NCBI GenBank assembly: GCA_964606485.1
Contig: CAZSGP010000002.1
Coordinates: 10,766-74,765, forward strand
Direction of reading: 5' to 3'
Source: an uncultured Planctomycetia bacterium
Lineage (GTDB): Bacteria > Omnitrophota > Gorgyraeia > 2-02-FULL-51-18
Length of the DNA: 64,000 nt
Shown here: positions 5,838 through 52,426 of the stretch, piece after piece
Numbering within the stretch: position 1 is the stretch's first letter
Layout of the letters: every line of letters begins with the position of its first letter
Made by a program: the position numbers and the translations under genes
The notes under the pieces: generated by a model
Seen by the model: the letters and a program-made list of their open reading frames with translations, nothing else
The model's database searches: none
Told to the model about the DNA's origin: nothing

Positions 5838-5873
5838 CGTCCTTCGCCCGGCAAACTACCGCCGGCCTCGGCG

Positions 5874-5903: not shown

Positions 5904-5950
5904 TTCTCCGTTTAAAACCGTGATTGAATTATGTTGTTAATGTAGCAAAA

Positions 5951-7672: not shown

Positions 7673-7682
7673 AGAATGTGTA

Positions 7683-8812: not shown

Positions 8813-8820
8813 CGCCGTTC

Positions 8821-26130: not shown

Positions 26131-26910
26131 CTAAAAATCACTCTTCATCACGCCTTGGACCGGTCCAAAAGGGGTCTTCAGCGTAATCCAAATTGGTTGT
26201 CGCTTGGCGTCGGCGCTAAAATAAACATCGGCCCGGCCGCGACTGGCTAAAATTCCTTTGAGCTTGGTCTTGGGTTCCACCCGAATCACGGCAAACTCGC
26301 CGTGTTTGCGGATTTCCCGAATCTGGGTTTCGTGCACATTGAGCTCCACGTCCCATAATTTTTCATCGGAGGCTACCAGCAAATGAAACTGGTCACCCGC
26401 TTGAACATTTTGCCGACGAAACCAAAAAAAAGCACTGATCAAGTCGTGTGCGTCGGCAGGGATAGAAATTTCTTTTTTAGACCCGTTCGTCACAGACTCA
26501 TAAAACGCTTTTCCAGCTGCTCGATCATAAATCATTTTTTCGTGCGCTTGGTACCGCCCCTCTTGAATATTTTTTTCAAACCGAATGGGTAAAAACGTTT
26601 TAGCATCCAGATAGCTATGAATTTCGTCTCTCACGAAACAAAACTTAGATAAAAATTCATTCGACCCCGCAACGGCAATCACATGAAACGCCTCTACCCC
26701 GTCCATCACTGTTTTTTCTTTAACTTCGAGGGTTCCAAATCCTATAGGAACGCCCATCCAGGAAACATCGAAGATTATTTTCTCGCCGACCGTAAGCGTT
26801 TGAAGAGCAGGCTCAATGACAACGGTCTGGCTTTTTTTCGCAGAAACGGCGTTAGCGGCACATGTTTGCACACAAAGGAAGATCAATATGAGCGCTATTT
26901 TATTTTTCAT
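26131..26910 (-). CDS. Secreted DUF3108-like protein (Sec signal peptide MKNKIALILIFLCVQTCAANA)
   Basis: 259 aa; signal peptide; my recollection of DUF3108 family length and composition; 11-nt overlap with the upstream GT9 gene implies co-transcription. Confidence 0.5.
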   Translation of the reverse strand: MKNKIALILIFLCVQTCAANAVSAKKSQTVVIEPALQTLTVGEKIIFDVSWMGVPIGFGTLEVKEKTVMDGVEAFHVIAVAGSNEFLSKFCFVRDEIHSYLDAKTFLPIRFEKNIQEGRYQAHEKMIYDRAAGKAFYESVTNGSKKEISIPADAHDLISAFFWFRRQNVQAGDQFHLLVASDEKLWDVELNVHETQIREIRKHGEFAVIRVEPKTKLKGILASRGRADVYFSADAKRQPIWITLKTPFGPVQGVMKSDF

Positions 26911-28897
26911 GCTTGTCTGAGCCCAGCATCTCTTTTAATTTTACAAATACTTGATCCACGCCAACCTGCTTCAAACACTCAAACTGAATCGTACAGGCAT
27001 GCGCTAAACACACGACGCATCCGGGATTTTTCTGAATCGTCTCATGTCCGCTTCCGAGTGCCTTCCAGCGAGCCTGACTTAAGCCCGCTTGATTGCGGCC
27101 AAAGATGGTCAGCGTAGGCGTACCGACAGCTGCCGCCACATGCACCGGCCCCGAATCGTTGGACACCAAGAGCCGACTTTCTTTTAAAATTGCTGAAAGT
27201 TCAGGGAGAGACAATTTTCCGGTCAAATCCTGAACAAAATCGCCCAAACTCTCTTTTAAGTGTAGGCCGATTTGAATCTCCTCTGAACCTCCCACCAAAA
27301 TAACAGGCCCCACATTTTCTCGTTTCATTTTTTGACACAGTTCTAAAAATTTTTCCTGCGGCCAGCGTTTAGAGGGACAGCTAGCGCCGGCGTGAATTGC
27401 AATTGGCGAATGCAGTAGCTTAAATTTCTGAATTATATTTTCTCGATCCGCCTGATAAACAATCAAGCGGGGATTCTCTTTAGACTCCTCGACTCCAAAT
27501 GCCCGGACAATTTCAAGTGTGTAGTCAGACTCGTGCTTCTGACCTTCGCTGCGCACATCCTTTACTTTCTGGGTCAAAAGCCATGGCAAATGAGAATCAA
27601 ATCCAATCCGGTATGGAATGCCCGCTAAAAATGGGACTAGATGCGCGCGCGTGCTTGGATGCAGCAGAAACGCCACATCAAAATTGCGGTTTGCTATTTC
27701 CTTTAGAATATTCCGCGCACCCTTCCACCCTGAGTGCCGGCCACCTTTCTCGTAAAAATATGGCAAAACATTATCCACATCGGGACAACGTTCAAAAATC
27801 TCACGAACCGCGGCACGACAGAGAACCGAAATCGAAGCATTCGGAAAACGCCGGCGGATCGCGGAGAGGGCCGGAAAAGACAACACCGCGTCCCCCATGC
27901 GGTCAAGCCGCACCACCAGCACTTTGAAATTCTTTTTTAGACTGGATTCATTTAAAATTTCATCGGCACGTCGGTAAACAAGATCGGGACTCAACTCCTT
28001 CAGACACTCTTGCTTAAACCGGCACTGCGCCTTCTCACAAGGCGAACAAAAAACCCCCGAACGAAGCGCTGCGCTCAAGACCCCCTTAGGTCCGTATCGG
28101 CGCGGATCGGTCGGACCAAAAATCCCGATCACCGGAATTTCAAGCGCGTCGGCAATATGGAGCGGCGCGCTATCATTCGTGATCACGAGATTCGACGCTT
28201 GGATTAGACCCGCTAATTCTTCAAACTGAGTTTGCCCACAAAAATTATGCACCGACGCGCGCATCAAATTCTTCACCTTTAACGCATCGTCAATATCCGT
28301 CTTATCCCCGATCAATCCGATCTTTACTCCCTTTTCAAACGCCAGGCGGTCGAGCAGAGCCGCAAAATGCTCGGCGGGCCATTTTTTTGTATCACTCTTA
28401 GATCCAACGGCTGCCAAAACCAAACCCGTGACACTCGACTGATTTAAAAATGCGTCGTAACTCGCATCTAATTTGGCCTTGCGCGAAAGCCAAGCTGCGG
28501 AACCCGCAATCGATGATTCTACAGAACAAATCCCTCTGAGGGCTGACAAGTGCCGCAAAGAACGAAGACTGCGTTTCGAGCAATATGAAAAATACGAATT
28601 CCGCTTCCGCGCTCCACCCAGCAAACCAAACAAGGAGTGGCGAAGGTCAATAATCAGATCGTAACGTCGTTTTCTGATTTCAAAAAGTATGTTTATTTTT
28701 TCAGAAAGCGGCGCACGCTTGTTAAAAATTTCAAGGCGATGAATCCGGGAATCATTTTCAAAAACGCATTTTGCGGAACTCCCAACAATCACATCAATTT
28801 GGGCATTAGGAAAAGATTCGTAAAGGGCGCGAAAAACCGGGAGCGTCAAGACCACGTCTCCCAGATTGGAAAGTGTGATAACTAAAATTTTTTTCAT
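26900..28897 (-). CDS. Tandem double glycosyltransferase family 9 protein (two heptosyltransferase-like domains fused, boundary near nt 27934)
   Basis: 665 aa; MKKILVITLSNLGDVVLTLPV... at the N-terminus and a second ...KNFKVLVVRLDRMGDAVLSFPAL... GT9 start at about aa 322; both halves end with GT9 C-terminal ...ND(S)(G/A)P(L/V)H(I/V)A(D/A)A motifs. Confidence 0.8.
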   Translation of the reverse strand: MKKILVITLSNLGDVVLTLPVFRALYESFPNAQIDVIVGSSAKCVFENDSRIHRLEIFNKRAPLSEKINILFEIRKRRYDLIIDLRHSLFGLLGGARKRNSYFSYCSKRSLRSLRHLSALRGICSVESSIAGSAAWLSRKAKLDASYDAFLNQSSVTGLVLAAVGSKSDTKKWPAEHFAALLDRLAFEKGVKIGLIGDKTDIDDALKVKNLMRASVHNFCGQTQFEELAGLIQASNLVITNDSAPLHIADALEIPVIGIFGPTDPRRYGPKGVLSAALRSGVFCSPCEKAQCRFKQECLKELSPDLVYRRADEILNESSLKKNFKVLVVRLDRMGDAVLSFPALSAIRRRFPNASISVLCRAAVREIFERCPDVDNVLPYFYEKGGRHSGWKGARNILKEIANRNFDVAFLLHPSTRAHLVPFLAGIPYRIGFDSHLPWLLTQKVKDVRSEGQKHESDYTLEIVRAFGVEESKENPRLIVYQADRENIIQKFKLLHSPIAIHAGASCPSKRWPQEKFLELCQKMKRENVGPVILVGGSEEIQIGLHLKESLGDFVQDLTGKLSLPELSAILKESRLLVSNDSGPVHVAAAVGTPTLTIFGRNQAGLSQARWKALGSGHETIQKNPGCVVCLAHACTIQFECLKQVGVDQVFVKLKEMLGSDKHEK

Positions 28898-29883
28898 GCG
28901 CGGAGCAGCTCGGAAGCAGCCTGCAACGCTTCGTCAGGCGTGATCCACTCCATACAGACTCTATAGTTACAGTCTCTAAAATAGCACGGCACCTGACATC
29001 CGGTTTCTTTTTTAAGAATCCGCACCGGCCCCAAAGAAAGAGGTCCTGTTAAATCCGGATGCGTTGGACCAAAAATTCCGAGAATCGGCGTTTTTTGGCT
29101 GGCGGCTAAATGAATAGGTCCTGAATCATTGGACAATAGCAGCCGCGCTTCTTTTAAAAGAAGAGCCAGCTCATCCAAAGAAGTTTTCCCCGTCATCACC
29201 ACAAGCCTGGGAGACGAGCAAAGAGATTTAATTTGATCGGACAGCGGCTTCTCAGCAAAAGTTCCGCAGAGAATGATTTTGGTGTCCGGAAACTTTTCAC
29301 TAAGGCCGTCTATCCACTGCGCAAAATTTTCCGCAGGCCAGCGCTTGAGAAGCCAATTCCCTCCCGGGTGAAGAGCTACGTAACGCTCTCCCGCCAAAGG
29401 ATTTCGCGCTGCTTTTTGCGGAAAAAAATCAGGCGTGCGTCCATCCGGAGCAATGCCCATCGCCGTGAGCAGATTTAAAAAATAATCCGTCTTATGAAGC
29501 GGGTGCTGAGGCAATGGAAAAACATGTGTCAAAAAACGCTTCTCAGGCTGTTTCGCGTAACCAAGCCGCACCGGGACACCGGCCATTTTTATAAAAAAAA
29601 TACGGGTGCGCGAGCGGTGAAAAAAAATGGCCGCGTCAAAATGCCTAGAGCGAATCTTAAAAAATATTTTTAAGGCTTTTGCATAAGAAAAAAGTGAGCG
29701 TCGATCGTCAATCAGAATAAGCTCATTCAAATAGGGATTGTTTTTAAGGAGTGCTTCGCAGCGCCGGGGCAGCAAACACGAAATAAAACTGTCGGGGTAT
29801 TTTTTTCGAATGGCCCGGATGGCTGGCGTCGAAAAAAGGACATCTCCCACCCAGTTCACATTCACAATTAAAATCTTTTTCAT
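28894..29883 (-). CDS. Glycosyltransferase family 9 (LPS heptosyltransferase-like); start trimmed to MKKILIVNVNWVGDVL
   Basis: GT9 N-terminal motif and C-terminal NDSGPIHLAA motif. Confidence 0.8.
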   Translation of the reverse strand: MKKILIVNVNWVGDVLFSTPAIRAIRKKYPDSFISCLLPRRCEALLKNNPYLNELILIDDRRSLFSYAKALKIFFKIRSRHFDAAIFFHRSRTRIFFIKMAGVPVRLGYAKQPEKRFLTHVFPLPQHPLHKTDYFLNLLTAMGIAPDGRTPDFFPQKAARNPLAGERYVALHPGGNWLLKRWPAENFAQWIDGLSEKFPDTKIILCGTFAEKPLSDQIKSLCSSPRLVVMTGKTSLDELALLLKEARLLLSNDSGPIHLAASQKTPILGIFGPTHPDLTGPLSLGPVRILKKETGCQVPCYFRDCNYRVCMEWITPDEALQAASELLRA

Positions 29884-29891
29884 GGAAACCT

Positions 29892-30716
29892 TTAAATGAT
29901 CGGAATCCGTTTTTTTCCTAAATGGTACAAGCCGCTGACCTTCAGCCAAAAGCTAAACAAACTTCCTCTGCTCTCACTGATTTTCACGCGGCGAAGCGCC
30001 ATAACATCATACCGAGTTCCTCCCCACATCTCTTTACGCTTAGAGGCGTAATTCGTCGTCACAGCGCACTGATACCCAGCTTGCTCCGACAGCTGCCTCA
30101 CCGCCTTGGTAACGCCCCCCGCGGGATAGCTCAGAAGAAAAATAGGATGCCCAAGAATCTTTTCAAGCCGGTTGCGCGACTCTTGGAGCTCCGCGATCGC
30201 GTTTTCAATGGACACTCTAGGTAAAAATGCGTGGTTATGCGTGTGGCTGCCGATCTGGATACCCGCGCCTTCTAAAATTTTCAAATCTTCTTCAGACAGC
30301 CACCCCTCTTTACCAACATTCCCGGTGATCATAAAAATAGTGGCCTTAAAACGCATTTTCTTTAAAACCGGAAAGGCATTTTCAAAATTATCAAGCGTGC
30401 CGTCGTCGAACGTGATGACCACGGTGTTGTAAGGAATCCTTTTTTGCGCTCTCAAAAGATCCGCTAAATCCAGCAGCGAAATCACATTGTAATGATGAAT
30501 GCGCAAAAACTCCATTTGCCGCTCGAAAGTTTGAAGGCTGACATCGGTGCTGGAGTTTAAATGCTGACCCGCTCCAACCCTGTGATACATCAAAATAGGA
30601 ACCTCATAATTTGCGCGGCAAAATACAAAACAAGCGACAAGCAGCGCTGGGATAATTACAAAGCGTTTTTTAAAACGAAAATTCATTAATGCGCTCCGCT
30701 GAAACTTCGCGCTCAT
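29892..30716 (-). CDS. Polysaccharide deacetylase (CE4/NodB family) with N-terminal membrane anchor
   Basis: 274 aa; TM helix then ILMYHRV, TFDDG, HTHNH motifs of CE4 enzymes. Confidence 0.8.
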   Translation of the reverse strand: MSAKFQRSALMNFRFKKRFVIIPALLVACFVFCRANYEVPILMYHRVGAGQHLNSSTDVSLQTFERQMEFLRIHHYNVISLLDLADLLRAQKRIPYNTVVITFDDGTLDNFENAFPVLKKMRFKATIFMITGNVGKEGWLSEEDLKILEGAGIQIGSHTHNHAFLPRVSIENAIAELQESRNRLEKILGHPIFLLSYPAGGVTKAVRQLSEQAGYQCAVTTNYASKRKEMWGGTRYDVMALRRVKISESRGSLFSFWLKVSGLYHLGKKRIPII

Positions 30717-32823
30717 CGAGTCGATTTTTTTGGCGGGCGTCCTTTAAAAAAGCCAACGTACAATCCAGGACGTCCTGTGGAAGTATTTTTTTCATACAGA
30801 TATGTCCAATCGGGCAGCTGCGCAAATAACAAGGGCTGCAGGAAATCTCTTTCCAAAACACCTGGCAAACGCTGGGAGCTACGAGATGGCGCTTGGGATC
30901 GGTTGGACCAAACAGAGCAATCAGCGGAACATTGGCCCCGGAGGCAATGTGCATCGGAGCTGAATCTGAACTAATGAACACCTGGCAACGACGGATGAGC
31001 GCCGCGAGCTCCGTGATAGATGTTTTTCCAACCGCATTGATCGGCTTGTTGCGTGTCAGCTGAAAAAGAGGCTCAATGGTTTTAGCGTCTTCCGGAGCCC
31101 CCGTGATCACAACCCGGATATTGCGCTTGGCAAGTTCATCGCAAAGCCTGGCAAAATATTCGAGTGGCCACTGCTTAGTGGGCCAACGAAGTGAGGATGC
31201 CGGATTAATTCCCACCAAAGTTTGACTAGAGGCCACCCACTGCGATTCTAAAAATTTGCTCACGCGAACATTCTCTTCTTGCGATGTCCAAAGCTCTAAT
31301 TTTTTTTCACTAGATTCCACGTCCACTAGTCTTAAAACTCGAAACTGGTGGTCTAGCGGGGCGGCGGAAGACGCCTCTTGAGAAGTGGTTTTGTTGAGTA
31401 AAAATGACCATTTTCGGTTGGCGTGTCCTGCGCGAACTCGAGCGCCGCTTAAAAAGGCTAGCAAATGACTCGTGCGGTTATTTTGCAAATCAACACAGAC
31501 ATCAAAATCTTCTTTTGCCAAAATTCGCGCCGTTTTCAAAATGCGGCTAATGCGCTCTTTGCCCTGTGCTTCCTCGTAAACAATCACATCGTTGACGTAA
31601 GGACAATTACGGATCACCTGGCGGGACTTGCGCCCCACCAAAACAGAAATCCAGGCATCGGGATATCGCTGCCGGAGTGCGCGCAGCGACGGAATGCTTA
31701 AAATAACATCCCCCAGCGCACTAAGCTTAATCACAAGAATTTTCTTTTGATTCATCGCCTCGTCATAAACTTTTAATGTTTTTTCAAACATGCCCTTGGC
31801 ATCAAACAACGTTTCAACTTTTTTTCTGAGCGCCAAAACAAGTGACGCGGCAAATTCAGGTTCTTTAACAAGGCGGATCACAGCCTCAGACAAAAGACGC
31901 GGATCATCCGGCGGAACCAGTAGCCCGTCTTTCTCATTTTCAATAATATCAACCAGGCCCCCGATTTTAGACGCTACCACTGGAACTCCGCAGGCCCCCG
32001 CCTCAATGGCCACGCGGCCAAACGCCTCTTCACCCACCGACGGCACCACCAGCACCGTCATAGACGCTAGTGCTTCGGAAATGTCATACCGGGTCCCTAA
32101 AAATTCAACGTTGTGCGTTAGGCCCAGACGCCGCGTCAGCATCAAAAGCTCTTCTTTATACTGCGGCTTTGGCGAGTCGCCGATAATCCGTATTTTTACG
32201 TTCGGGAACACCCGAACTACGCGAGCCATTGCTTTTAAAAAAACGGGATGGCCTTTAATGGGCGTTAGTCTTCCAATCACACCAATCACAATCGGTGAAC
32301 CGGCAAGAGGCGTGGGTTCGGGCCTTAATTTGAATTCATTCAAGTTCACGCCGCGATGAATGAGGCGAATGCGTTGGTGTGGCACCCCAAAGTCATCGCG
32401 CATGCGCCGGCCAATGATGTGACTTGCGACAATCACGCGCTTGCCCCAGCCCATGATGCGGCTCATCAAGTGCTTGCTATAAAAACCATGACAGGTCGTT
32501 ACAAACGGCACATGTGTTTTACGGCTTGCTAAAAAAGCAATCCAGGCAGGCACGCGACTGCGCGCGTGAATAATTTGAATTTCTTCCTTACGAATGATAT
32601 TTGCTAAAGATCGAGCGGAGCTAAAAATGCTAAATGGGGATTTTTTGTGCACCGGAAGCTTGTAATGCGTCACCCCTGCTGATTCGAGATCAGCCACAAG
32701 CGGACCACCTGCGGATACCACCACCGAATGATGGCCGGCATTTTTAAGGTATTTCGCGAAGTCAACCGTGCCGCGCTCCACTCCGCCCGATTGAAGTTCC
32801 GGCAACACCTGAAGAACTCTCAT
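30670..32823 (-). CDS. Bifunctional GT4 (RfaG-like) - GT9 (heptosyltransferase-like) fusion glycosyltransferase (boundary near nt 31749)
   Basis: 717 aa; N-terminal GT-B GT4 domain (VVASKIGGLVDIIENEKDGLLVPP, the E-X7-E region) followed at about aa 359 by KKILVIKLSALGDVILSIPSLRAL..., a GT9 domain with C-terminal SSDSAPMHIASG. Confidence 0.8.
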   Translation of the reverse strand: MRVLQVLPELQSGGVERGTVDFAKYLKNAGHHSVVVSAGGPLVADLESAGVTHYKLPVHKKSPFSIFSSARSLANIIRKEEIQIIHARSRVPAWIAFLASRKTHVPFVTTCHGFYSKHLMSRIMGWGKRVIVASHIIGRRMRDDFGVPHQRIRLIHRGVNLNEFKLRPEPTPLAGSPIVIGVIGRLTPIKGHPVFLKAMARVVRVFPNVKIRIIGDSPKPQYKEELLMLTRRLGLTHNVEFLGTRYDISEALASMTVLVVPSVGEEAFGRVAIEAGACGVPVVASKIGGLVDIIENEKDGLLVPPDDPRLLSEAVIRLVKEPEFAASLVLALRKKVETLFDAKGMFEKTLKVYDEAMNQKKILVIKLSALGDVILSIPSLRALRQRYPDAWISVLVGRKSRQVIRNCPYVNDVIVYEEAQGKERISRILKTARILAKEDFDVCVDLQNNRTSHLLAFLSGARVRAGHANRKWSFLLNKTTSQEASSAAPLDHQFRVLRLVDVESSEKKLELWTSQEENVRVSKFLESQWVASSQTLVGINPASSLRWPTKQWPLEYFARLCDELAKRNIRVVITGAPEDAKTIEPLFQLTRNKPINAVGKTSITELAALIRRCQVFISSDSAPMHIASGANVPLIALFGPTDPKRHLVAPSVCQVFWKEISCSPCYLRSCPIGHICMKKILPQDVLDCTLAFLKDARQKNRLDEREVSAERINEFSF

Positions 32824-34808
32824 CCCAAAATCCTTTGCATGGCTCTAGACAAAACCTGCTCATCTGAGCGCTCAGCTTCCGAACTTTTTTGAGGCTTAAA
32901 ATTTAAGAATGTTTGTGTCATATTTTCAGAGCCAATCATTTCAATTTGTTTTTTTTGCTTCATAAAATCTAAAAATCTTTTGTACTTCGGCTTAAGCTCA
33001 TCTGCCTTAAAGGGTGTGAATACCATCACCCGTTTACCCGAAGCGATGGCTTCTGACACCATCGACATTGACTCCGCGGTCACCACCACACTTTCACACA
33101 AACCTAAAATTGCATTCACAACACCGGGTCTGTTTTTTTCGTTTGCGATCACAAGCAGCGGACAAATTCCTCGATCTGAAAATTTCTCTTTTAAAATTTC
33201 GTCTGCCCAAGGTGGCGTCCGGCGCGACGTTGTAACAAAAATTTTTAAATTCTGCCCTTTGGCCAAACGCAGTAAATCATCGGTATTTTTTTCAAAAATT
33301 TCTTTTGAAAATTGGACGTCCTCGGTGTCGCCCCCGATTAAAACCCCAAGCGTTCTACAACCCTCTTCAAGCCCAAGCTCGTCTTTTAACTTACGCGCCT
33401 CATCAAGCGCTTTCTTAGGATTTGCTAAAGACAGTACACGCTCTGTTATAAACACATTGGCGGAAGGTGTTATTTTATCATGCAGCGGAGCAATCACAGC
33501 GTCAAAACGCCCTGCTCCAAAGGGCGGCTTCATCACGATAGCGGCCTTAGCCTTTAAATCCCTCTTAAGCGCAAGGCTTACTCCCGCAATCGAGCTTCCG
33601 CAGGAAATGAAAATATCCGCCGGAGCGGCCCACAAATCAGCGAGCGTCTTTTCGTCCAAACAAAGATTCATCCAAGACTGTTCAAACCAGGGATTTCCAG
33701 CGCCTAGAAAATAGACAGTCTGAAAAAGTTTACGCAAGATCGGATTCTTAAATTTCACCTCGACCACTTTGACTTGAGTTTCCTCGTCGGGCAACCCCTG
33801 CCCGCGCCGGTACTGCGCGAGCGCTTCCGACACGGCTAAGGATTGATTGAGATGTCCCGCCTTCCCATCGCTCAAAACAACAACGAACCGGGTTGTTGTG
33901 GATTTCCAGCGCCGATGACCCCACATCCACATGGTCGGGTCTTTGCGGATCTTCGCCTCCAAGAGAGTTGCAAACTGCTGAAGCACCGCTTTTTCAGTTT
34001 CCTCTTCACTAAGACCTTTTGGAAAATCGAGCGCGGCTTCCATTTCAATGCGGTGATTCATTTGATTTTCTCTGAAAATAAATCCTGGAAAAATCGGCGC
34101 CCCTGCTTTGAGTGCAAATGCGACAACGCCGCGCGGCGTGGACGAGGCTCTTCCGAACAAACGAACAAAAACACCGTTGCGGCCCCCGTCTTGATCACTT
34201 AAAATACCAACCGCCTTTCCTTCTCTGAGCACACGGATGAGCTGGCGAATCATCATTCCCTTGTAAATAATCTCACTACCCTGCGAAGCTCTTAAAGAGT
34301 TCAGGAATTCATCCGACCGAGGGTGTTTTTGCGCGCGCGCCAGAGCCGCCAGCGGATGCCCTACGAGACAAGCGGTGGCGTTTAATAATTCCCAATTTCC
34401 AAAGTGACCCGTTAAAAAAATAACCCCCTTGTGGGCGTCTAAAGAGGGCTGAACTTTTTCAAGGTTCACGATCCTCACGTGTTTTTCGATGTAATCACGG
34501 GTTAAATCCGGAAAACGCAAAAGCTCGACCATGGAGACAGCGAGATTCACCATGGATTGTCGGGAGATAGTGTTAATTTCGGAGCGGGATTTTTCGCCTT
34601 TAAAACAAAATCTTAAGTTTTTATAGGCAATGTGTCGACGGGTGGTTAAAACATAGAATAGATGGCCGATGCTTCGTCCAATCCTGCAAGAAACCGGAAG
34701 CGGTAAAACACGGACAAGGAACCGGAGGGCTTTGGAAGCCCTAAGAATTAAGGCATCTTCTAATAAAATCTTCTTCATCGCCCAATTCAAACTCAATTTG
34801 AAGTACAA
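32820..34808 (-). CDS. Lipid A secondary (lauroyl/myristoyl) acyltransferase LpxL-family domain fused to a C-terminal ELM1/DUF1022-like domain (boundary near nt 33896)
   Basis: 662 aa; N-terminal LABLAT fold with HFGNWE catalytic H-X4-E motif; C-terminal about 355 aa begins TRFVVVLSDGKAGHLNQSLAVSEAL, resembling the ELM1-family N-terminus as I recall it (tentative). Confidence 0.7.
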   Translation of the reverse strand: MYFKLSLNWAMKKILLEDALILRASKALRFLVRVLPLPVSCRIGRSIGHLFYVLTTRRHIAYKNLRFCFKGEKSRSEINTISRQSMVNLAVSMVELLRFPDLTRDYIEKHVRIVNLEKVQPSLDAHKGVIFLTGHFGNWELLNATACLVGHPLAALARAQKHPRSDEFLNSLRASQGSEIIYKGMMIRQLIRVLREGKAVGILSDQDGGRNGVFVRLFGRASSTPRGVVAFALKAGAPIFPGFIFRENQMNHRIEMEAALDFPKGLSEEETEKAVLQQFATLLEAKIRKDPTMWMWGHRRWKSTTTRFVVVLSDGKAGHLNQSLAVSEALAQYRRGQGLPDEETQVKVVEVKFKNPILRKLFQTVYFLGAGNPWFEQSWMNLCLDEKTLADLWAAPADIFISCGSSIAGVSLALKRDLKAKAAIVMKPPFGAGRFDAVIAPLHDKITPSANVFITERVLSLANPKKALDEARKLKDELGLEEGCRTLGVLIGGDTEDVQFSKEIFEKNTDDLLRLAKGQNLKIFVTTSRRTPPWADEILKEKFSDRGICPLLVIANEKNRPGVVNAILGLCESVVVTAESMSMVSEAIASGKRVMVFTPFKADELKPKYKRFLDFMKQKKQIEMIGSENMTQTFLNFKPQKSSEAERSDEQVLSRAMQRILG

Positions 34809-35721
34809 AAAAATTGACTCCCAAGAAATCCTCCGCAGAAGCTCCTTTTAATACCGGCTCAAGCCTGTAAAAATCTTTTTCGGTGGTGACGACGTCCCGC
34901 ACCCCAAGATCCTTGCAGCGCCGCGCAAATGCCATCACGTCCTGCCGCGTGTAAGGGTGATGATCGTCAAAGCGCCCCGCCAAAATAATTTCGGAACCCA
35001 AGAGTTCAAGCGTCTTCTCAAAACTATGAGGATCTCCGATTCCAGACAACGCCCCTACTTTTCGATTCTTTAAAATCTCAAGCTCCACAGATTTTTTCTT
35101 ACGAATATCAATCAGGTCAACCGGCTTATGAATCGCCTCAAAAATGGCGGCTCCCGGCTTAATGGTTAAGAGTTTCTGCCGGATCAAATGAAGATTTTTT
35201 GAACCAATATTACTTTTGGTCAAAACAAAAACTTGAGCGCGGTTTAAATTTTCAAGTGGCTCTCTTAAGTTTCCTTCCGGAATTAGTCCCCCGGGCCCAA
35301 ACGGACAGGTCGCGTTGATATTCACCACGTCCAAATCTCTATGGAGACGGATATGCTGGAATCCATCATCCAAAATAACAATTTCGGCCCCATGCTTTTC
35401 GACGGCCTCGGTTGCCGTTTTAATTCGGTCCCGGCCGACGAGCACAGGGATGCCGGGTAAGCGACTTTTAAGCTCAGCTACTTCGTCTTTTCCATAACCA
35501 CGAGTAAGAACGGCTGTTTTCTTTCCTTGAATGCTCATGTAACGCGCAAGCGCGATCACAAGCGGTGTCTTACCGGTTCCGCCCCAGGTAATGTTTCCAA
35601 CGCTGATTACTCGAGCGCCCACTTTACGAATTCGGTCGGGGTGAATTTTATAAGTCGCCTGTGTGAAGCGAACAACGGCTCCATAGATTCGAGACAAAAA
35701 CTGCAAAAACCATTTTTTCAT
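34741..35721 (-). CDS. lpxK: Tetraacyldisaccharide 4'-kinase
   Basis: 326 aa; GNITWGGTGKTP P-loop. Confidence 0.9.
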   Translation of the reverse strand: MKKWFLQFLSRIYGAVVRFTQATYKIHPDRIRKVGARVISVGNITWGGTGKTPLVIALARYMSIQGKKTAVLTRGYGKDEVAELKSRLPGIPVLVGRDRIKTATEAVEKHGAEIVILDDGFQHIRLHRDLDVVNINATCPFGPGGLIPEGNLREPLENLNRAQVFVLTKSNIGSKNLHLIRQKLLTIKPGAAIFEAIHKPVDLIDIRKKKSVELEILKNRKVGALSGIGDPHSFEKTLELLGSEIILAGRFDDHHPYTRQDVMAFARRCKDLGVRDVVTTEKDFYRLEPVLKGASAEDFLGVNFFVLQIEFELGDEEDFIRRCLNS

Positions 35722-35733
35722 TTTAATCTTTCC

Positions 35734-36990
35734 TTATGCGTTCAAAAAATCAATAGATCTTTGTGTAGCGCCTTGATGCAGCTTGATAATCTTTTTGGCC
35801 TTCTGACCTAACCCCACTCTAAAATTAACGTCCGCAATCTGCTTGTCGAGCGCCGCGCTCAACATCTCTAAATCTTTAACTTCGAACCCTGCTCCTTCTT
35901 TCAAAAACAATTCGGTCATTTGGCGAAAATTTTGCGTAAATGGGCCAAATAAAATCGGCTTCTCAAAATACGCAGGCTCCACCAGATTGTGTCCTCCGGT
36001 CGGAACCAAGCTTCCTCCAACAAAAACAGAGTCCGCCGCATTATAAAAATCTGCCAAAGCCCCCATTTTGTCGAGCACGACAATTCCCGCGCTCTGCCCG
36101 CTCTTCCATTGCGACAATCGAACCAGTTCTAAATTTCGGTCCGCTGCCAGCTTCTCAATCTTCGAAAGCCTGTCTAGGTGACGAGGGGCTAAAAGCAACG
36201 CAAAGAAAGAGTATTTTGCCTTGAGGTGGCAGTAAGCGTCAAAGAGAATCTCCTCTTCCCCCGCATGCGTACTGCCGGCCACCCAAAGAAATGTGTTGCT
36301 CCCGAGCGCTTTTCTAAAGAAATCTGCTTCCCCCGCGAACACTCCCTTCGGGAACCAGTCATATTTTAGATTTCCAGAGACATGAACAGTGTCTGGCGCA
36401 GCGCCCAAACTGATAAAACGTTCTTTCGCCTGTTCGTCCTGGGCAAGAATTCCCTTGAGACGTCGCAAGACCGGCGCTAAGAATAGTTGGACACGGCGAT
36501 ATTTTGGAAACGCGCGGTCTGAAATGCGTCCATTCACAATCCATGCAGGAATTTTTCGGTCGGACAACTCAAAAATGAGATTCGGCCAAATCTCGGTTTC
36601 GAATAGAATCACGCGCTCGGGCCGAACAGCATTCAAAAAACGCTTCACCGCAAAAAATCCGTCGATCGGACAGTATAAGACCGTATCATCGTCCGAGCGA
36701 TTTTTGAGAACCGTTTCCCTTCCGGTTGCCGTCGTGGTGGTGATTAAAAAATGTTTATCTGGCCAATTTTCTTTGAGTGCTTTTAAAAAAACCATGGCCT
36801 GGGCCGCCTCACCCACCGAAACCGCGTGAATCCACACCACTGATTTTTCGCGTAGTTTCTGCTGGATTTGAATCGGTACAAATCCAAACCGCTCGCGTAG
36901 CCCGCCTTTAAATTTCCCCTTCGCAATAAAAGTTGGGAGATAAATTAAAGAAAAAATAAAAAAGCCGACGTTATAAATAAATCTAAGCAT
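35734..36990 (-). CDS. waaA: 3-deoxy-D-manno-octulosonic acid transferase (Kdo transferase)
   Basis: 418 aa; N-terminal TM then WIHAVSVGE motif; GT30. Confidence 0.9.
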   Translation of the reverse strand: MLRFIYNVGFFIFSLIYLPTFIAKGKFKGGLRERFGFVPIQIQQKLREKSVVWIHAVSVGEAAQAMVFLKALKENWPDKHFLITTTTATGRETVLKNRSDDDTVLYCPIDGFFAVKRFLNAVRPERVILFETEIWPNLIFELSDRKIPAWIVNGRISDRAFPKYRRVQLFLAPVLRRLKGILAQDEQAKERFISLGAAPDTVHVSGNLKYDWFPKGVFAGEADFFRKALGSNTFLWVAGSTHAGEEEILFDAYCHLKAKYSFFALLLAPRHLDRLSKIEKLAADRNLELVRLSQWKSGQSAGIVVLDKMGALADFYNAADSVFVGGSLVPTGGHNLVEPAYFEKPILFGPFTQNFRQMTELFLKEGAGFEVKDLEMLSAALDKQIADVNFRVGLGQKAKKIIKLHQGATQRSIDFLNA

Positions 36991-37879
36991 GCGGATGCGC
37001 CTTGTCGTAAGCTTCCTTTAGCCGTTCACTCGAAACGTGCGTATAGATCTGAGTCGTTGATAAGTTGGCATGTCCCAACAACTCCTGGACCGAGCGCAAA
37101 TCGGCCCCCTTATTTAAAAGATGGGTCGCAAACGAGTGCCGAAGCGTGTGCGGCGACACGCCTTCCTTGCGACAGGTCTGTTCTACGTATTTGTTCACGA
37201 GGCGCGAAACACTGACCGGCGTTAAACGCGAGCCGCGGCTATTAGGCGAGTGATTTAAAAATAAGGCTTTCAGATCCGATTTGCGGTTTTTCTTAAAATC
37301 TTCTTTTTGGCGCAATTCCAAGTACCGTCGAACGCTCTGCAGCGCCTTGTCGCCAATAGGGCAAATCCGCTCCTTTTTTCCTTTTCCCATCACCTTGCAA
37401 GCGCCGCCGATAAAATCAATTCCGTCGATATTTAAACTCACAAGCTCGGAAACGCGCAGGCCTGTGGAGTAGAGCGTTTCAAGAATAGCTTTATCCCGCC
37501 GACCGGACAAATCATCCTCCGGAGATTCCAAAAGCGCCACCACTTCATTTTCATCGAGCACCATGGGCAATTTTTTATCGAGCTTCGGACTTCTCAAAAG
37601 CCCCATTGGATTTTTGGAAAGATACCCTTCCCGGTTTAAAAATTTAAAATAAGTTCTCAAAACCGCCATCCGTCGAGCCACGGTTCTTTTGGATAAATCC
37701 TCTTCTTTGAGGCGGGCTAAATATCGCCGCAGAGACAAGACATCCACATTTTCTAAAGACGCTTCCCCTAAAAATAAATAAAACTCTCTTAAATCGTGCG
37801 TGTAGCTGACGAGCGTATGGCGGGAATAATTTTTTTCGGCTTTTAAATAGTTGATGAATTTAAGCGTGTGTCGTTCCAC
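36983..37879 (-). CDS. xerC: Tyrosine site-specific recombinase XerC/XerD family (GTG start overlapping the topA stop by 1 nt)
   Basis: 298 aa; R..HxxR..Y catalytic set: HTLRHSFATHLL, LLGHANLSTTQIYTHV. Confidence 0.88.
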   Translation of the reverse strand: MERHTLKFINYLKAEKNYSRHTLVSYTHDLREFYLFLGEASLENVDVLSLRRYLARLKEEDLSKRTVARRMAVLRTYFKFLNREGYLSKNPMGLLRSPKLDKKLPMVLDENEVVALLESPEDDLSGRRDKAILETLYSTGLRVSELVSLNIDGIDFIGGACKVMGKGKKERICPIGDKALQSVRRYLELRQKEDFKKNRKSDLKALFLNHSPNSRGSRLTPVSVSRLVNKYVEQTCRKEGVSPHTLRHSFATHLLNKGADLRSVQELLGHANLSTTQIYTHVSSERLKEAYDKAHPHA

Positions 37880-40137
37880 TACGAATCTTCGATGGAATCG
37901 TTTTTTTCTTCTTTATCAGCGGGAGCAGCCCCTTCGGGCTTCGGAAGGCGATTGGCGATGAAATTGCAATCTGGGTAGCGCGTGCATCCAAAAAAAGATC
38001 TGCCCTTACCCATTTTGGATCGGCGCTGAACAAGCTTTCCTTGCAGACATTGTGGGCACGGCACGTTAGTCGAAATCGACTTTGCATTTTTGCAGTCCGG
38101 CCAGCCGGAGCACGCCATAAACTTGCCCTTGCGGCCCCATTTAATCACCATGGGCTTGGCGCACTTTTCGCAAATTTCGTCTGTAGGCTCCGCCTCGCGC
38201 TTCACGCTTTCCATTTGAGTCTTCGCCAAGTCCATCTGTGTGCCAAAAACGCCATAAAAATCCTTCACGGCGGTGATCCATTTCAATTGTCCCTCTTCAA
38301 CCTTATCCAACTCTTCTTCCATGTTGGCGGTAAATTCGTAGTCCATTAATTTTGAAAAATGCTTTACAAGCAGATCGGTAACGAGCATTCCCAAATCACT
38401 TGGGATCAGACTTCCGCCCTCACGACGCACATAATCGCGTCCGGTGATGGTGGAAATTGTCGGAGCGTACGTCGATGGCCGTCCAATTCCATTTTCTTCG
38501 AGCGCTTTCACGAGTGAAGCGTCGGTGAACCGGGCTGGGGGTTTTGTGAAATGTTGTTCCGGTAAGAGCTGGAGCAGTTTTAAAATTTCTTTAGGCTCGA
38601 GTGTGGGCAGAGGATTCTCTTCTTCCTCAGCTTGACCACGAACCGCAAGGTAGCCTGGGAATTCAATCCGGCTTCCGGCCGCGTGAAACGTGTATTCTCC
38701 AGCCGTAATATCCGCGCTATCTTGCCCGATTTGAGCGGGCGTCATTTGGCTCGCGAGTGCGGTTTCCCAGATCAGCGAATACAACTTAAATTGATCCGGA
38801 GCCAAATACTGCTCGATGTCTTTTGGTCGTCTTAAAATGGAGCTCGGACGGATCGCTTCGTGCGCGCCTTGCGCATCTTTTTTGGATTTATAAAAATTGG
38901 GTTTTTCCGGGAGATAGTCCTTTCCGAATTCTTTGGAAATAAATTCACGGATTTCGCTCACGGCGGTGTCTGCCATTCTCACCGAGTCTGTTCTCATGTA
39001 GGTAATCAAACCCACGCTTCCCTCAGACCCTAGCTCCACGCCTTCGTACAACCCTTGAGCCGTGCGCATGGTTTTAGCGGCAGGAAACCTTAAAACGTTG
39101 TAAGCAGCCTGCTGAAGCTTACTCGTGGTAAACGGCGGGTACGGATTCTTTTTTTTCTTCTGATGCTTTATTTCGCTGACAATAAAAGGGAGAGATTTGG
39201 TAGCAATTAGAACCTGATCGGCTTGCGACTTCGATTTGATTTCCGCTTTATCAGGGCCGATTTTATCGAGCTTAGCCTTAAAGACGTTCCTTTTGCCTTT
39301 TTCTTTTTCAAGCTCCGCTTCAATCGACCAGTATTCTTCCGCCTTAAAAGCTCTGATTTCACGCTCGCGATCAACAATCAGTCTAAGCGCCACTGACTGC
39401 ACTCTACCCGCCGATAACCCTCGGCCCACTTTTTGCCAGAGTAGTGGGCTTAAATTGTAACCAACCAAACGGTCGAGAACGCGCCGGGCTTGCTGAGCGT
39501 CCACACGGTTCATGTCAATTTCGCCGGGGTTTTTAAAAGCGGCTTGAATGGCTTCTTTCGTGATTTCGTTAAAAACAACTCGTGTGCATTTTTTTCCTTC
39601 GCCCAATACATTTTTTAAATGCCAGCTAATGGCCTCCCCTTCGCGGTCAGGGTCACAGGCGAGAACAAGATTCTCTTTTCCTTTGGCAAGAGCCTTGAGT
39701 GCCGTTAAAACTTTTTTCTTATCTTTCGAGACGATGTATCTAGGCGTAAAATCGTTATCGATGTCGATTCCCATTTTGCTTTTAGGCAAGTCGATCACAT
39801 GGCCCATGGACGCGGCCACATCAAATCCGGGTCCTAGATATTTTCCGATGGTTTTGCACTTTGCGGGAGACTCTACGATCACAAGCGTTCCCGCCCCCTT
39901 GGACTTGGAAGCGGTGGACTTCTTTTTAGGTGACGCTCCGCCGCCCACAAAATTCACAATTTCGAGCTCATCGCCATTTTCAACGCGGCAGGTTGCAAAT
40001 TCCTCTCGAGGAATAATTTCTAAATTTTTCTCAATGGCCACTCTCTGCTTTTCGATGCCAAGCTTTTTTAAAAGCCCTTCAAGCGTGAGCGCTTCATCTA
40101 GCGATTGCTTCTTTCCGTTTAATTTAATTTCAATCAC
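37879..40137 (-). CDS. topA: DNA topoisomerase I with an in-frame N-terminal ThiS-like (beta-grasp, -GGG) domain and Lys-rich linker
   Basis: 752-aa ORF; residues about 84 onward are canonical TopA (TLVIVESPAKCKTIGKYLG TOPRIM, catalytic Tyr region, C-terminal C4 zinc ribbons). No stop codon or ATG lies between the ThiS-like part and the TopA start. Confidence 0.9.
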   Translation of the reverse strand: MIEIKLNGKKQSLDEALTLEGLLKKLGIEKQRVAIEKNLEIIPREEFATCRVENGDELEIVNFVGGGASPKKKSTASKSKGAGTLVIVESPAKCKTIGKYLGPGFDVAASMGHVIDLPKSKMGIDIDNDFTPRYIVSKDKKKVLTALKALAKGKENLVLACDPDREGEAISWHLKNVLGEGKKCTRVVFNEITKEAIQAAFKNPGEIDMNRVDAQQARRVLDRLVGYNLSPLLWQKVGRGLSAGRVQSVALRLIVDREREIRAFKAEEYWSIEAELEKEKGKRNVFKAKLDKIGPDKAEIKSKSQADQVLIATKSLPFIVSEIKHQKKKKNPYPPFTTSKLQQAAYNVLRFPAAKTMRTAQGLYEGVELGSEGSVGLITYMRTDSVRMADTAVSEIREFISKEFGKDYLPEKPNFYKSKKDAQGAHEAIRPSSILRRPKDIEQYLAPDQFKLYSLIWETALASQMTPAQIGQDSADITAGEYTFHAAGSRIEFPGYLAVRGQAEEEENPLPTLEPKEILKLLQLLPEQHFTKPPARFTDASLVKALEENGIGRPSTYAPTISTITGRDYVRREGGSLIPSDLGMLVTDLLVKHFSKLMDYEFTANMEEELDKVEEGQLKWITAVKDFYGVFGTQMDLAKTQMESVKREAEPTDEICEKCAKPMVIKWGRKGKFMACSGWPDCKNAKSISTNVPCPQCLQGKLVQRRSKMGKGRSFFGCTRYPDCNFIANRLPKPEGAAPADKEEKNDSIEDS
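39937..40137 (-). other. thiS: ThiS-like sulfur-carrier/ubiquitin-fold domain (67 aa, ends ...ELEIVNFVGGG) fused in frame to topA
   Basis: MIEIKLNGKKQSL...EKNLEIIPREEFATCRVENGDELEIVNFVGGG has ThiS length and closely parallels Bacillus-type ThiS as I recall it (...ERNKEIIGKERYHEVELCDRDVIEIVHFVGGG). Confidence 0.7.
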
Positions 40138-41247
40138 TTAAATCGCCCTTTCAAAAAAGTTCCCGGGTTTTCTACGGATAAACCCTTTCATCTCAAGCTG
40201 TGTCAGCTCTACAATCGCCTCAGAGGCAGGCACTCCCAGCGCTTCAATTAAATCATCAGTCAGCGCAGGCTGGCGTTCTAAGCGAGCGAGAATGATTTTT
40301 TCTTTTTCATTCAAAAGATTTGGGTCGACAATTTTAGCCTGACGGGAAAATTGTGGCTCAGCTAACACACCCGAAATTTCATTGAGCACGTCCTGCGCAG
40401 AAAGCGCTAGCTTTGCGCCTTGCTTTAAAAGTGCGTGCGTGCCTTCTGAACGCAATGAATCAACCGGGCCCGGCACCGCAAACACTTCCCGGTTTTGGTC
40501 CAGTGCCGAGTCCACCGTGATCAGCGCGCCGCTTCTTTGCATAGCCTCAACCACCACCACTGCACGCGACAAGCCGCTGATGATCCGGTTTCGGACTGGA
40601 AAGTACTCGGGTCTTGGCATTACGTCCATAGGGTACTCCGAAATGATCGCGCCACTTTGAATCATTTTTTTAGCTAGTTTTTCGTGTGTTTTCAAAACGC
40701 CATGCGTAAGACCGCCGCCCAACACACCCACCGTCAAACCTCCTCCGGCGAGCGCTCCCTCGTGTGCAGAGGCGTCAATTCCCATGGCCAACCCGCTAAC
40801 CACGACGGCACCAAGCTTTGCAAAGTCCTGCCCAAAAAGATGCGCCATCCGGATCCCATAATCCGACGCACTTCTAGACCCTACCAGTCCTATGGCCGTG
40901 AGTGAATCACCCGGAAGATTGCCCATCACATACAACGCCATCGGCGGGTCGTAAATTTCCTTCAGCAAAGCGGGGTACGCCTCATCAAAAAAACCAATTA
41001 CAGCCGCGCCGCGATCATGCGCTTTCTGAATTTCAAGCTCTGCTTTTTTTAAAATATCTTGTGAAAAAATTTGTTCGAACGAAACATGGGTAGAGCGAGG
41101 TATCTCTTTGAACTCTGAGAGCTCTGCGGACCAAATCCGGTCGAGTGACCCAAATTTATCTAAAAGCTTTCGAAATGTCGCGGGCCCCAAGCCCTGCACC
41201 AGTGACAGCGCCACGCATTTTTTTAAATCGTCAGAAACAAGCTTCAA
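40138..41247 (-). CDS. dprA: DNA processing protein A (DprA/Smf)
   Basis: 369 aa; Rossmann-like DprA core (GLAMGIDASAHEGAL) and C-terminal winged-helix; conserved dprA-topA linkage. Confidence 0.9.
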   Translation of the reverse strand: MKLVSDDLKKCVALSLVQGLGPATFRKLLDKFGSLDRIWSAELSEFKEIPRSTHVSFEQIFSQDILKKAELEIQKAHDRGAAVIGFFDEAYPALLKEIYDPPMALYVMGNLPGDSLTAIGLVGSRSASDYGIRMAHLFGQDFAKLGAVVVSGLAMGIDASAHEGALAGGGLTVGVLGGGLTHGVLKTHEKLAKKMIQSGAIISEYPMDVMPRPEYFPVRNRIISGLSRAVVVVEAMQRSGALITVDSALDQNREVFAVPGPVDSLRSEGTHALLKQGAKLALSAQDVLNEISGVLAEPQFSRQAKIVDPNLLNEKEKIILARLERQPALTDDLIEALGVPASEAIVELTQLEMKGFIRRKPGNFFERAI

Positions 41248-51129: not shown

Positions 51130-51609
51130 TTATCTTCTTCTAAAATCAATCTGCCGGTTCTTTGGTCCTAAAATTTTAATGTGAATTTCCGCTCTTTTAG
51201 AGGGCAAAAGTTTTTTCTCTCTTCCCGCCCACTCGACTAGCGTCACGCCACCCGCATTGAAACATTCTTCGGCGAACTCCGCATCTACATTCTTCACTTC
51301 AGCTAAACGGTACCAGTCCAAATGATAGATTTTTACGCGTCCTGAGTATTCGTGAATGAGCGCAAACGTGGGACTTGCCACCTCAGCCTCATTTTTAACT
51401 CCGAGACCCTTGGCAATTCCTTTGACCAGCGTGGTTTTCCCTGCGCCCAAGTCACCAAACAACGCTACCACATCCCCTGGCGTCAATTGCTTGGCAATAG
51501 CTAATCCCACTTTTTTAGTTTGTTCGGCTGAGCCGCTTTTAAAAGTGACGGAAGCCGGATTCTTGGAGATTTTTTTGCTGGCCATTTTTAGCTTGAAGCT
51601 TAATCCCAT
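51130..51609 (-). CDS. tsaE: tRNA threonylcarbamoyladenosine biosynthesis ATPase TsaE (YjeE)
   Basis: 159 aa; GDLGAGKTTLVKG P-loop and YHLDWYRL motif. Confidence 0.88.
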   Translation of the reverse strand: MGLSFKLKMASKKISKNPASVTFKSGSAEQTKKVGLAIAKQLTPGDVVALFGDLGAGKTTLVKGIAKGLGVKNEAEVASPTFALIHEYSGRVKIYHLDWYRLAEVKNVDAEFAEECFNAGGVTLVEWAGREKKLLPSKRAEIHIKILGPKNRQIDFRRR

Positions 51610-52420
51610 TTTTTGAACTTACGACTGCGCCAACCGCACAAACCTTGAACGGTAAATTTTTTAATCGTGCGGCCTGACTGGGTGGAGCGGCAAACAAAAG
51701 CTCAAAATCCTCTCCATCAGACAGGGCCTCTTTAAGCGAAACGCCTTTATTTTTGGGAACGCTCTCGCTCCACAACACCGCGCCCACGTGACTCGCCGCA
51801 CAAAGCCTGAATAGATCCGACGCCAGACCGTCCGACACATCCATCATCGCATGAATTTTTATTTTGTTAACGAGAATTTGCGCTTCTTTGAGTCGGGGTG
51901 TAAAGTTTAAATGTTTTTTAGAGGCGTAAGAACCACCCAAAGGCCCCGTCACAAAAAGCTGGTCACCCGGTCTTGCCCCAGAGCGCAAAGCAAGCTTTGA
52001 GCGCTCCACTCGACCGGTCAGCGTCACTGAAACGATAAGCTTACTGGAAGCATTGGTGTCGCCGCCCACCACGGCAGCTCCAAAACTCCGCGCCACACTC
52101 TCCAAACCCCGGTAGAGCTCTAAAGCGAACGAGCCCGCGCATTTTTTGGGAAGCCCCACAGCCACCACGGCGTGCTCTGGAATTCCACCCATTGCCGCAA
52201 TGTCACTTAAGTTCACTGCCATCGCTTTGTGGCCTATTTCGTATGCTGACGCTTCCTTTAAACGGAAATGCTTATTCTCAATCAGCATGTCTGCGGTGAT
52301 CAGCGTGTAAAACTTTTGATCGCGGTTGATCACCGCAGTGTCGTCCCCGATTCCCACGACGACGCCGGCATTTAGCCGCGTGCGGCGCTTTATTGAATCA
52401 ATCAGCTCAAATTCATTCAT
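51539..52420 (-). CDS. thiL: Thiamine-monophosphate kinase
   Basis: 293 aa; AIR-synthase-related fold, GIGDDTAVI N-terminal motif. Confidence 0.88.
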   Translation of the reverse strand: MNEFELIDSIKRRTRLNAGVVVGIGDDTAVINRDQKFYTLITADMLIENKHFRLKEASAYEIGHKAMAVNLSDIAAMGGIPEHAVVAVGLPKKCAGSFALELYRGLESVARSFGAAVVGGDTNASSKLIVSVTLTGRVERSKLALRSGARPGDQLFVTGPLGGSYASKKHLNFTPRLKEAQILVNKIKIHAMMDVSDGLASDLFRLCAASHVGAVLWSESVPKNKGVSLKEALSDGEDFELLFAAPPSQAARLKNLPFKVCAVGAVVSSKNGIKLQAKNGQQKNLQESGFRHF

Positions 52421-52426
52421 CGCGTT

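Follow-up and report, generated by a model that had tools for sequence, protein, structure and literature searches.

Sulfur carrier proteins of the ThiS type need a free Gly-Gly carboxylate for adenylation by their E1 enzyme (ThiF). In eukaryotes, genes of the UBA52 and RPS27A type encode ubiquitin N-terminal to a ribosomal protein, and the ubiquitin is released by cleavage after Gly-Gly. In M. tuberculosis, MoaX (a fused MoaD-MoaE) requires a cut between Gly82 and Ser83 for activity (PMC4326299), and in D. radiodurans a MoaD-MoaE fusion is reported to be cleaved by the JAMM/MPN+ peptidase DrJAMM (PMC8832034). Iyer, Burroughs and Aravind (2006) proposed release by a JAB peptidase wherever ThiS or MoaD is fused, with partners from sulfur metabolism or the same pathway, i.e., ThiG, ThiF, MoaE, sulfite reductase and aldehyde ferredoxin oxidoreductase (PMC1779556). 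Nearly all known ThiS/MoaD fusions have a partner from the same pathway, and a need for cleavage has been demonstrated for only a few. Here we analyse a 64,000-nucleotide stretch of DNA from an uncultured bacterium of the candidate phylum Omnitrophota (GCA_964606485.1, contig CAZSGP010000002.1; the whole stretch is referred to as the window), in which a canonical ThiS is fused in frame to DNA topoisomerase I (TopA), an unrelated essential DNA enzyme, and is constrained exactly at the would-be processing site. A topoisomerase or TOPRIM partner is mentioned neither by Iyer et al. in 2006 (PMC1779556) nor in the 2007 beta-grasp survey, and a limited full-text literature check found no description of a ThiS-TopA architecture; the original prediction made from this DNA, that the arrangement was undescribed, agrees with both.

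The fusion open reading frame (ORF) lies on the minus strand at 37879..40137 (stop codon included) and encodes 752 amino acids from a GTG start, with ThiS, Toprim, Topoisom_bac and two zinc ribbons in one frame. From the N-terminus, the protein consists of residues 1-67, ending in ...ELEIVNFVGGG, a linker, ASPKKKSTASKSKGAG, and then TLVIVESPAKCKTIGKYLG. The junction DNA reads ...GTG GGC GGC GGA GCG TCA CCT AAA AAG AAG... ACG CTT GTG ATC GTA GAG, and both this sequence and the ORF list bear out the earlier claim of a ThiS-TopA junction with no stop codon, ATG or change of frame.

The ThiS domain (residues 1-67; 39937..40137, minus strand) was recognised as a beta-grasp sulfur carrier by profiles, alignment to solved chains and tblastn. 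The NCBIfam equivalog model TIGR01683 (thiS) matches residues 4-67 over its whole length (profile positions 1-64 of 64); against a cut-off of 37.45 bits, its score is 69.7 for the complete 752-aa protein and rises to 75.8 when the domain is searched by itself. Pfam ThiS (PF02597) matches residues 5-67 with 44.9-50.3 bits (cut-off 22.5), such that the assignment of the first 67 codons to ThiS holds above the cut-offs of both profiles. E. coli ThiS residues 1-66 align to 40134..39937 by tblastn, and the solved ThiS chains of B. subtilis (1tyg_B), E. coli (1f0z) and T. thermophilus (2cu3) align with the domain end to end, which makes Gly66-Gly67 (39937..39942, minus strand) the equivalent of the free C-terminal Gly-Gly of ThiS. 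The equivalog score and the alignment to solved ThiS thus agree with the original prediction of a genuine ThiS-type beta-grasp domain bearing the diagnostic Gly-Gly. The AlphaFold2 model of the fusion, built on 107 homologues with a mean predicted local distance difference test score (pLDDT) of 86, predicts with confidence both TopA and a small domain formed by residues 1-63 (pLDDT about 87-91); its predicted strands at residues 2-6, 9-13, 33-37, 40-42 and 57-62, together with a helix at 19-26, follow an order consistent with a beta-grasp. In length, signature residues, C-terminal ...VGGG and a score above the equivalog cut-off the domain is like stand-alone ThiS (1tyg_B, 1f0z). Unlike stand-alone ThiS, it has no free C-terminus, as encoded Gly67 being peptide-bonded to Ala68 and 685 further residues, and its gene lies in a dprA-topA-xerC operon and not with thiF, thiG and thiH.

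The remainder of the protein is TopA (residues 84-752; 37879..39888, minus strand), recognised by TIGR01051 and by Pfam Toprim, Topoisom_bac and two copies of Zn_ribbon_Top1. Its layout comprises a TOPRIM domain (residues 84-192), a core (207-624), two C4 zinc ribbons (about 654-725) and an acidic tail. TIGR01051 (topA_bact) covers residues 85-688 with 781.5 bits (cut-off 456.4), in line with the expectation of an intact TopA following the linker in frame. E89 in LVIVESPAK, the motif D162-P-D164-R-E-G-E (E166 included), the active-site tyrosine motif T379-Y380-M381-R382-T383-D384 and the zinc-ribbon cysteines are invariant across 107 orthologues; we take the TOPRIM Glu, the DxD cluster and the active-site Tyr to have the catalytic roles established for TopA. 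With full-length domains and catalytic residues in place, the TopA part is complete. Public records name these proteins merely "type I DNA topoisomerase", even though precomputed data show their Pfam architecture, and pathway surveys can consequently miscount thiS in Omnitrophota.

Among the 120 best TopA matches from a collection of 5.8 billion proteins, 109 carry the same in-frame ThiS, and all homologues with a source name belong to Candidatus Omnitrophica/Omnitrophota. The fusions represent 109 distinct clusters at 90% identity, from NCBI, JGI, ENA and Logan assemblies, and an identical record of the window's own 752-aa protein exists in two sources (NCBI and Logan). An artefact or a decaying gene (a sequencing or assembly error, an over-extended gene call, or a recent loss of a stop codon leaving a dead ThiS) might be suspected, given that the GTG start abuts the upstream stop, where ORF finders can over-extend. 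The recurrence of the fusion in 109 of 120 homologues excludes a local sequencing or assembly error, and the artefact reading as a whole, to which we attach next to no probability, is already refuted by these homologues and by a full-length ThiS with an equivalog-level match and invariant signature residues. That the ThiS-TopA fusion exists and is ancient we regard as practically certain.

The fusions form three deep clades, the most divergent members having 53% identity, and unfused forms are nested within them (neighbour-joining tree of the TopA core, unrooted). Across 107 aligned fusions, the ThiS domain has a mean pairwise identity of about 50%, compared with 67-75% for the TopA domains; N7, E36, N38, D56, E59, G66 and G67 are nonetheless invariant ThiS signature positions, and each of the 23 diverse fusions sampled (23/23) matches TIGR01683. 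A search with the N-terminal alignment among 1.84 billion representatives returned seven short fragments spanning ThiS and TOPRIM, the full-length fusions evidently being clustered under other representatives in that set. Two further loci, L014 and L039, were considered as possible fusions and rejected as tblastn read-through into the C-terminus of dprA. The ThiS-TopA fusion is inherited across the candidate phylum Omnitrophota, and ThiS has probably been kept at the TopA N-terminus since early in the history of the phylum. The fusion reported in the original prediction is real, ancient and kept across Omnitrophota, and more than an event in one genome.

Relatives in which thiS and topA are separate genes were also found. 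Orthologues with a stop codon after Gly-Gly, suggested as a check in the original prediction, or after one further Ala exist in four loci. In L005, thiS ends in ...VGGG and TAA, and the topA ATG follows immediately in the same frame; in L090, ...VGGG and a stop are followed by 12 in-frame nucleotides and the topA ATG; in L091 (thiS at 1246-1497), ...VGGGA is followed by TAA, GCC and ATG in the same frame; and in L003 (thiS at 9792-9998), ...VGGGA is followed by TAA, two nucleotides and a GTG in a different frame (frameshifted). The stand-alone ThiS of these split relatives matches TIGR01683. Three of the four split loci are in frame, with one stop codon, or a stop plus 3-12 nucleotides, parting the two-gene from the fused state, and L005, L090 and L091 lend support to the earlier suggestion that the fusion originated by loss of a stop codon. 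It is well supported that thiS once stood directly before topA in a dprA-thiS-topA-xerC operon, with stop and start abutting, and that the fused and two-gene forms change into one another as the stop is lost or later regained. The stand-alone ThiS ending in GGGA (P0104/P0106 lineage) is under purifying selection, with a ratio of nonsynonymous to synonymous substitution rates (dN/dS) of 0.13 at dS 0.71. This ThiS runs one residue past Gly-Gly, and C-terminal trimming would hence be needed if it is a sulfur carrier. Other relatives lack ThiS: L004/P0117 has dprA and then a topA starting MAKNLVIVESPAK, while P0087, on a 7685-bp contig, has a TopA that is 67% identical to the window protein and nests among the fusions but carries a low-complexity N-terminal extension of 93 residues in place of ThiS. 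A fusion ancestral to the sampled lineages, with splits and losses secondary, is the most parsimonious account of an unrooted tree by which the polarity is not proven. Split and ThiS-less lineages keep an ordinary TopA, and the pairing is probably a tolerated historical accident and not a functional partnership.

Where constraint ends within the fusion bears on what becomes of the protein. Among the 107 aligned fusions, G65 is at least 90% conserved next to the invariant G66 and G67. The residue that follows Gly-Gly (position +1) is A in 82, S in 22, G in 3, T in 1 and M in 1; it is small in 109/109 fusions and never (0%) K/R, whereas the linker beyond +1 has 24% K/R and 46% small residues. 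In the window, the linker (residues 68-83, 39889..39936, minus strand) is a stretch of 16 Lys/Ser-rich amino acids that is predicted to be disordered, pLDDT being below 50 at residues 64-81 (tail and linker). Across the 109 fusions it is 4-40 amino acids long (median 7), rich in A/K/S/G/P/E, and present as 97 distinct strings, the first residue being its sole constrained position. One of the short linkers, in P0091, is SKRS. An invariant Gly-Gly, a small +1 residue and a free linker mean that selection covers the whole of ThiS plus one residue and then ends. This suggests the pattern predicted for a processing site, unlike that of a mere flexible tether. The small +1 residue would fit two compatible explanations, the specificity of a protease or a stabilising residue at the new N-terminus.

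In the reading that we find best supported, the 752-aa product would be a precursor that is cut between Gly67 and Ala68 (predicted cleavage point between 39937 and 39936, minus strand) by a peptidase specific for Gly-Gly, the most plausible candidate being a JAMM/MPN+ enzyme of the Mec/DrJAMM type. The cut would free a 67-residue ThiS with the Gly-Gly carboxylate that an E1-like adenylyltransferase of the ThiF/MoeB type requires to form ThiS-thiocarboxylate. The same cut would free a normal TopA whose new N-terminus starts with a small residue. Because ThiG is reported to be rare in the phylum, the sulfur would likely go to a thiazole synthase of the Thi4 type or to some other enzyme that uses sulfur. 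The proposal is put forward because ThiS is canonical, because constraint ends one residue after Gly-Gly and because split and fused forms interconvert, and we hold it to be evenly balanced between right and wrong.

The original prediction had offered three readings of the fusion: a ubiquitin-like precursor, a regulatory module, and a gene fusion by loss of a stop codon. The junction would favour the first, and the last is supported as the origin of the fusion. The second, the main rival, in which ThiS is never released and serves as a beta-grasp interaction or regulatory domain that, for example, recruits a partner or gates the nearby TOPRIM active site, with Gly-Gly-Gly as a hinge, seems to us unlikely, if still deserving of attention. 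It would account for a link to topA kept over deep time, even where genes have been inserted after dprA, and for the fact that no thiamine gene (thiF/G/H/E/C), E1 or peptidase gene was found near the fusion; the reported rarity of ThiG in the phylum is also in its favour, as is the short distance, about 20 residues with the median linker of 7, between the domain and the catalytic Glu89 of LVIVESPAK. On the other hand, a linker that is hypervariable in length (4-40 amino acids) and sequence and predicted to be disordered argues against a fixed geometry, and a hinge would need neither two invariant glycines nor a next residue that is always small. Moreover, split lineages make a separate canonical ThiS and others have none, the N-terminus of TopA being ordinary, and an equivalog-level ThiS in 23/23 fusions indicates no divergence towards a new role. 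If ThiS is not cleaved, the fusion would provide a previously unrecognised N-terminal module on a bacterial topoisomerase I.

Initiation within the ORF was considered as well. TopA might be translated mostly from a start in or after the linker, with the full fusion a minor by-product and ThiS functionless. A purine-rich AAGGGGG (within 39889-39905) lies about 12 nucleotides upstream of the GTG codon of Val86 in the window, and the distant orthologues L087 and L088 also have GTG at codon 86. The feature is not conserved, however: L001, an orthologue of 66% identity on the 1.59-Mb contig JAJVIE010000003.1 (GCA_022072175.1), has GTC at this codon and no alternative start close by. A start at Val86 would also cost the first TOPRIM strand its invariant Leu85, and internal initiation gives no reason for the strong conservation of ThiS and Gly-Gly; we consider it very improbable. 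A programmed frameshift yielding free ThiS was rejected, as the alternative frames, read by eye, give no stop right after Gly-Gly.

The window contains thiL (51539-52420, minus strand; TIGR01379, 264.8 bits), an Rce1-like CAAX/CPBP intramembrane protease (52427-53476, minus), a TatD-like ORF assigned by eye only (53473-54258, minus) and a cysteine desulfurase of the NifS/IscS family (54239-55345, minus). The thiL, protease and desulfurase genes adjoin (51539-55345), about 12 kb from the fusion. The presence of thiL and the desulfurase indicates that the organism handles thiamine phosphate. Among 176 complete Omnitrophota genomes, thiE, thiC, thiL and iscS are each present in at least 167 (bioRxiv 10.64898/2026.06.07.730766). 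Omnitrophica have Thi4, and some of the thi4 genes cluster with ThiS/ThiF-type genes in genomes without ThiG; one Omnitrophica Thi4 performed better in E. coli when ThiF-ThiS was present (bioRxiv 10.1101/2025.09.23.678117). In L086 (GCA_964590995.1, CAZPYY010000023.1; taxon not verified), a sulfur-relay cluster at 5175-11609 has the order ThiI-like protein, PALP enzyme, HcyBio, NIL/ferredoxin, MoaD/SAMP1-like carrier, MoeB/UbaA-like E1, Thi4 (two ORFs) and DUF6775, with a Thi4 that shares 95% identity with the one published from Omnitrophica.

Among KEGG Orthology (KO) numbers, we take K22699 to be thi4 and mec (K21140) to be a JAMM peptidase. In the KO table of Seymour et al. (2023), genome 231, a metagenome-assembled genome (MAG) of Velamenicoccia that is 92.7% complete, has thiS, topA, thiC, thiE, thiL, K22699, moeB (K21029), mec (K21140) and moaD, while thiF, thiG, thiH, moaE and moaA are absent. 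At least one Omnitrophota genome thus combines thiS with an E1 and a Gly-Gly peptidase. The same authors describe the thiamine pathway as complete, with a module defined as thiC plus thiD only (Seymour et al., 2023), and this statement is accordingly silent on the thiazole branch.

Several considerations weigh against the release of ThiS from a precursor. The cleavage is inferred from sequence, the organisms being uncultured, and the 109 fusions share ancestry and are not 109 independent observations. Unfused TopA proteins begin Met-Ala or Met-Ser (MAK..., MAE..., MSK...), and the small +1 residue could be a remnant of such a start; an origin as the second codon of TopA would explain where the small residue came from, yet not why it was retained. 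The small residue could also reflect a structural instead of a proteolytic constraint. With regard to partner genes, tblastn with the E. coli thiF, thiG, thiH, thiE and thiC products and with the E1, MoaD-like carrier and Thi4 of L086 gave no match in the window or at seven related Omnitrophota loci, apart from the ThiS domain itself. A search of the window for a JAB/JAMM protease, which covered motifs (a single chance match, antisense) and Pfam domains in ten selected ORFs, found none. Altogether, no thiF/moeB, thiG, thiH, thi4 or JAMM gene was detected in the 64-kb window or within at most 10 kb at the seven loci, the usual partners of ThiS being thiF and thiG, with thiH or thiO, commonly in one operon; the original prediction had likewise listed thiF, thiG, thiH and a JAB protease as absent from the window. 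At the level of the phylum, thiG is present in only 38/176 complete genomes (bioRxiv 10.64898/2026.06.07.730766), which means that the classical client of a short ThiS is usually missing. Finally, the Thi4-linked carrier of L086 is a 90-aa MoaD/SAMP1-like protein ending in IAGG, not a short ThiS, and the thiS of genome 231, known from the KO table, may be fused or split.

Where ThiG is absent, the released ThiS might, in the manner of Thermus TtuB and the archaeal SAMPs, be used chiefly to modify proteins or to carry sulfur for general purposes, with a MoeB/UbaA-like E1 for its activation and a JAMM peptidase for its removal, and its fusion to topA would then be a prokaryotic counterpart of the ubiquitin-ribosomal protein genes. 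All of the junction evidence for cleavage applies to such a modifier precursor, and genome 231 combines moeB-like and mec (JAMM) KOs with thiS while having neither thiF/thiG/thiH nor the genes for molybdenum cofactor synthesis. The E1 of L086, moreover, scores 280 bits against the SAMP-activating UbaA (below its cut-off), and the L086 carrier resembles SAMP1. We judge a role as modifier to be improbable, given that the domain matches the thiamine-type ThiS equivalog and not the TtuB, SAMP or MoaD models, and that the E1 and JAMM of genome 231 may instead serve a MoaD-like carrier. Equally doubtful is a broader proposal in which a thiamine-type ThiS would be a true ubiquitin-like element, made only as a fusion to a housekeeping enzyme, released by a JAMM peptidase and activated by a MoeB/UbaA-like E1 for modification or for clients other than ThiG, e.g., Thi4. 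Were it true, the supply of carrier would be coupled one-to-one to TopA synthesis, or TopA activity would be processing-dependent.

By analogy, the fusion appears most like the MoaX and MoaD-MoaE class of Gly-Gly-processed carriers. As in MoaX, an N-terminal ThiS/MoaD-type carrier is joined to its partner via Gly-Gly, with a small residue next (...VGGG/A, small in 109/109 fusions). The cut in MoaX falls after the second Gly, at Gly82/Ser83, and the junction here is Gly67/Ala68, with A or S in 104/109 orthologues. While MoaX unites two subunits of one enzyme and the partner in this class is a functional partner of the carrier, here the partner is TopA, an unrelated housekeeping DNA enzyme. MoaX is also one of several paralogues in a few mycobacteria, whereas ThiS-TopA dominates a phylum, and cleavage has been shown for MoaX, whereas for ThiS-TopA it is predicted from the junction. 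Like the Deinococcus fusion, ThiS-TopA would be a fused carrier precursor with a candidate JAMM for release, a mec KO being present with thiS in at least one Omnitrophota MAG; unlike that system, the JAMM is not tied to the ThiS-TopA locus and the partner lies outside the pathway. We know of no link between TopA and sulfur transfer.

The closest conceptual parallel may be the ubiquitin-ribosomal protein fusion genes of eukaryotes, in which a beta-grasp protein ending in Gly-Gly likewise stands N-terminal to an abundant, essential and unrelated housekeeping protein. Differences could extend to the protease family and the downstream chemistry; the homology is at the level of the fold superfamily only, and processing here is hypothetical. 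Cleavage, if true, would make ThiS-TopA the clearest bacterial parallel to eukaryotic ubiquitin-fusion precursors and would mean that Omnitrophota have a Gly-Gly-specific peptidase with a housekeeping protein as substrate. The role of ThiS in an organism without ThiG would then also need explaining, with a tie to recent evidence that Thi4 enzymes perhaps take sulfur from a ThiS/ThiF-type relay.

The genes around the fusion are arranged in a conserved order, ...aroC-aroK-dprA-[thiS-topA]-xerC-waaA-lpxK-..., in the window, L001, L087 and L088. In L087 and L088, which belong to two distant clades, extra genes are inserted between dprA and the fusion. Directly upstream in the window is dprA (40138..41247, minus strand; Pfam DNA_processg_A and DprA_WH), the TAA of which abuts the GTG of the fusion; dprA is also the upstream neighbour in L001-L005, L090 and L091, and in L001 it overlaps the fusion by 4 nucleotides. 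Directly downstream is a xerC-type tyrosine recombinase (36983..37879, minus strand; Phage_integrase and SAM-like domains), and xerC is the downstream neighbour in every locus examined. According to the ORF list, base 37879 belongs both to the stop codon of the fusion and to the GTG with which xerC begins. Tight or overlapping borders such as these suggest translational coupling along dprA-thiS/topA-xerC. No RNA families were found in the 64-kb window at Rfam gathering thresholds (no tRNA, rRNA, thiamine pyrophosphate riboswitch or other riboswitch). The minus strand holds 55/57 ORFs of a greedy set, including all with an assigned function, and the two ORFs on the plus strand are short and have no function assigned. 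Downstream of xerC (26900-36990, minus strand) lies a lipopolysaccharide (LPS)/lipid A cluster that encodes unusually large multi-domain proteins: a double heptosyltransferase of 665 aa (26900-28897), a GT4 plus GT9 fusion of 717 aa (30670-32823) and a lipid A acyltransferase plus Elm1-like fusion of 662 aa (32820-34808), the Pfam content of all three being taken from orthologous loci. The order of the LPS cluster is kept in L001, L003, L087 and L088.

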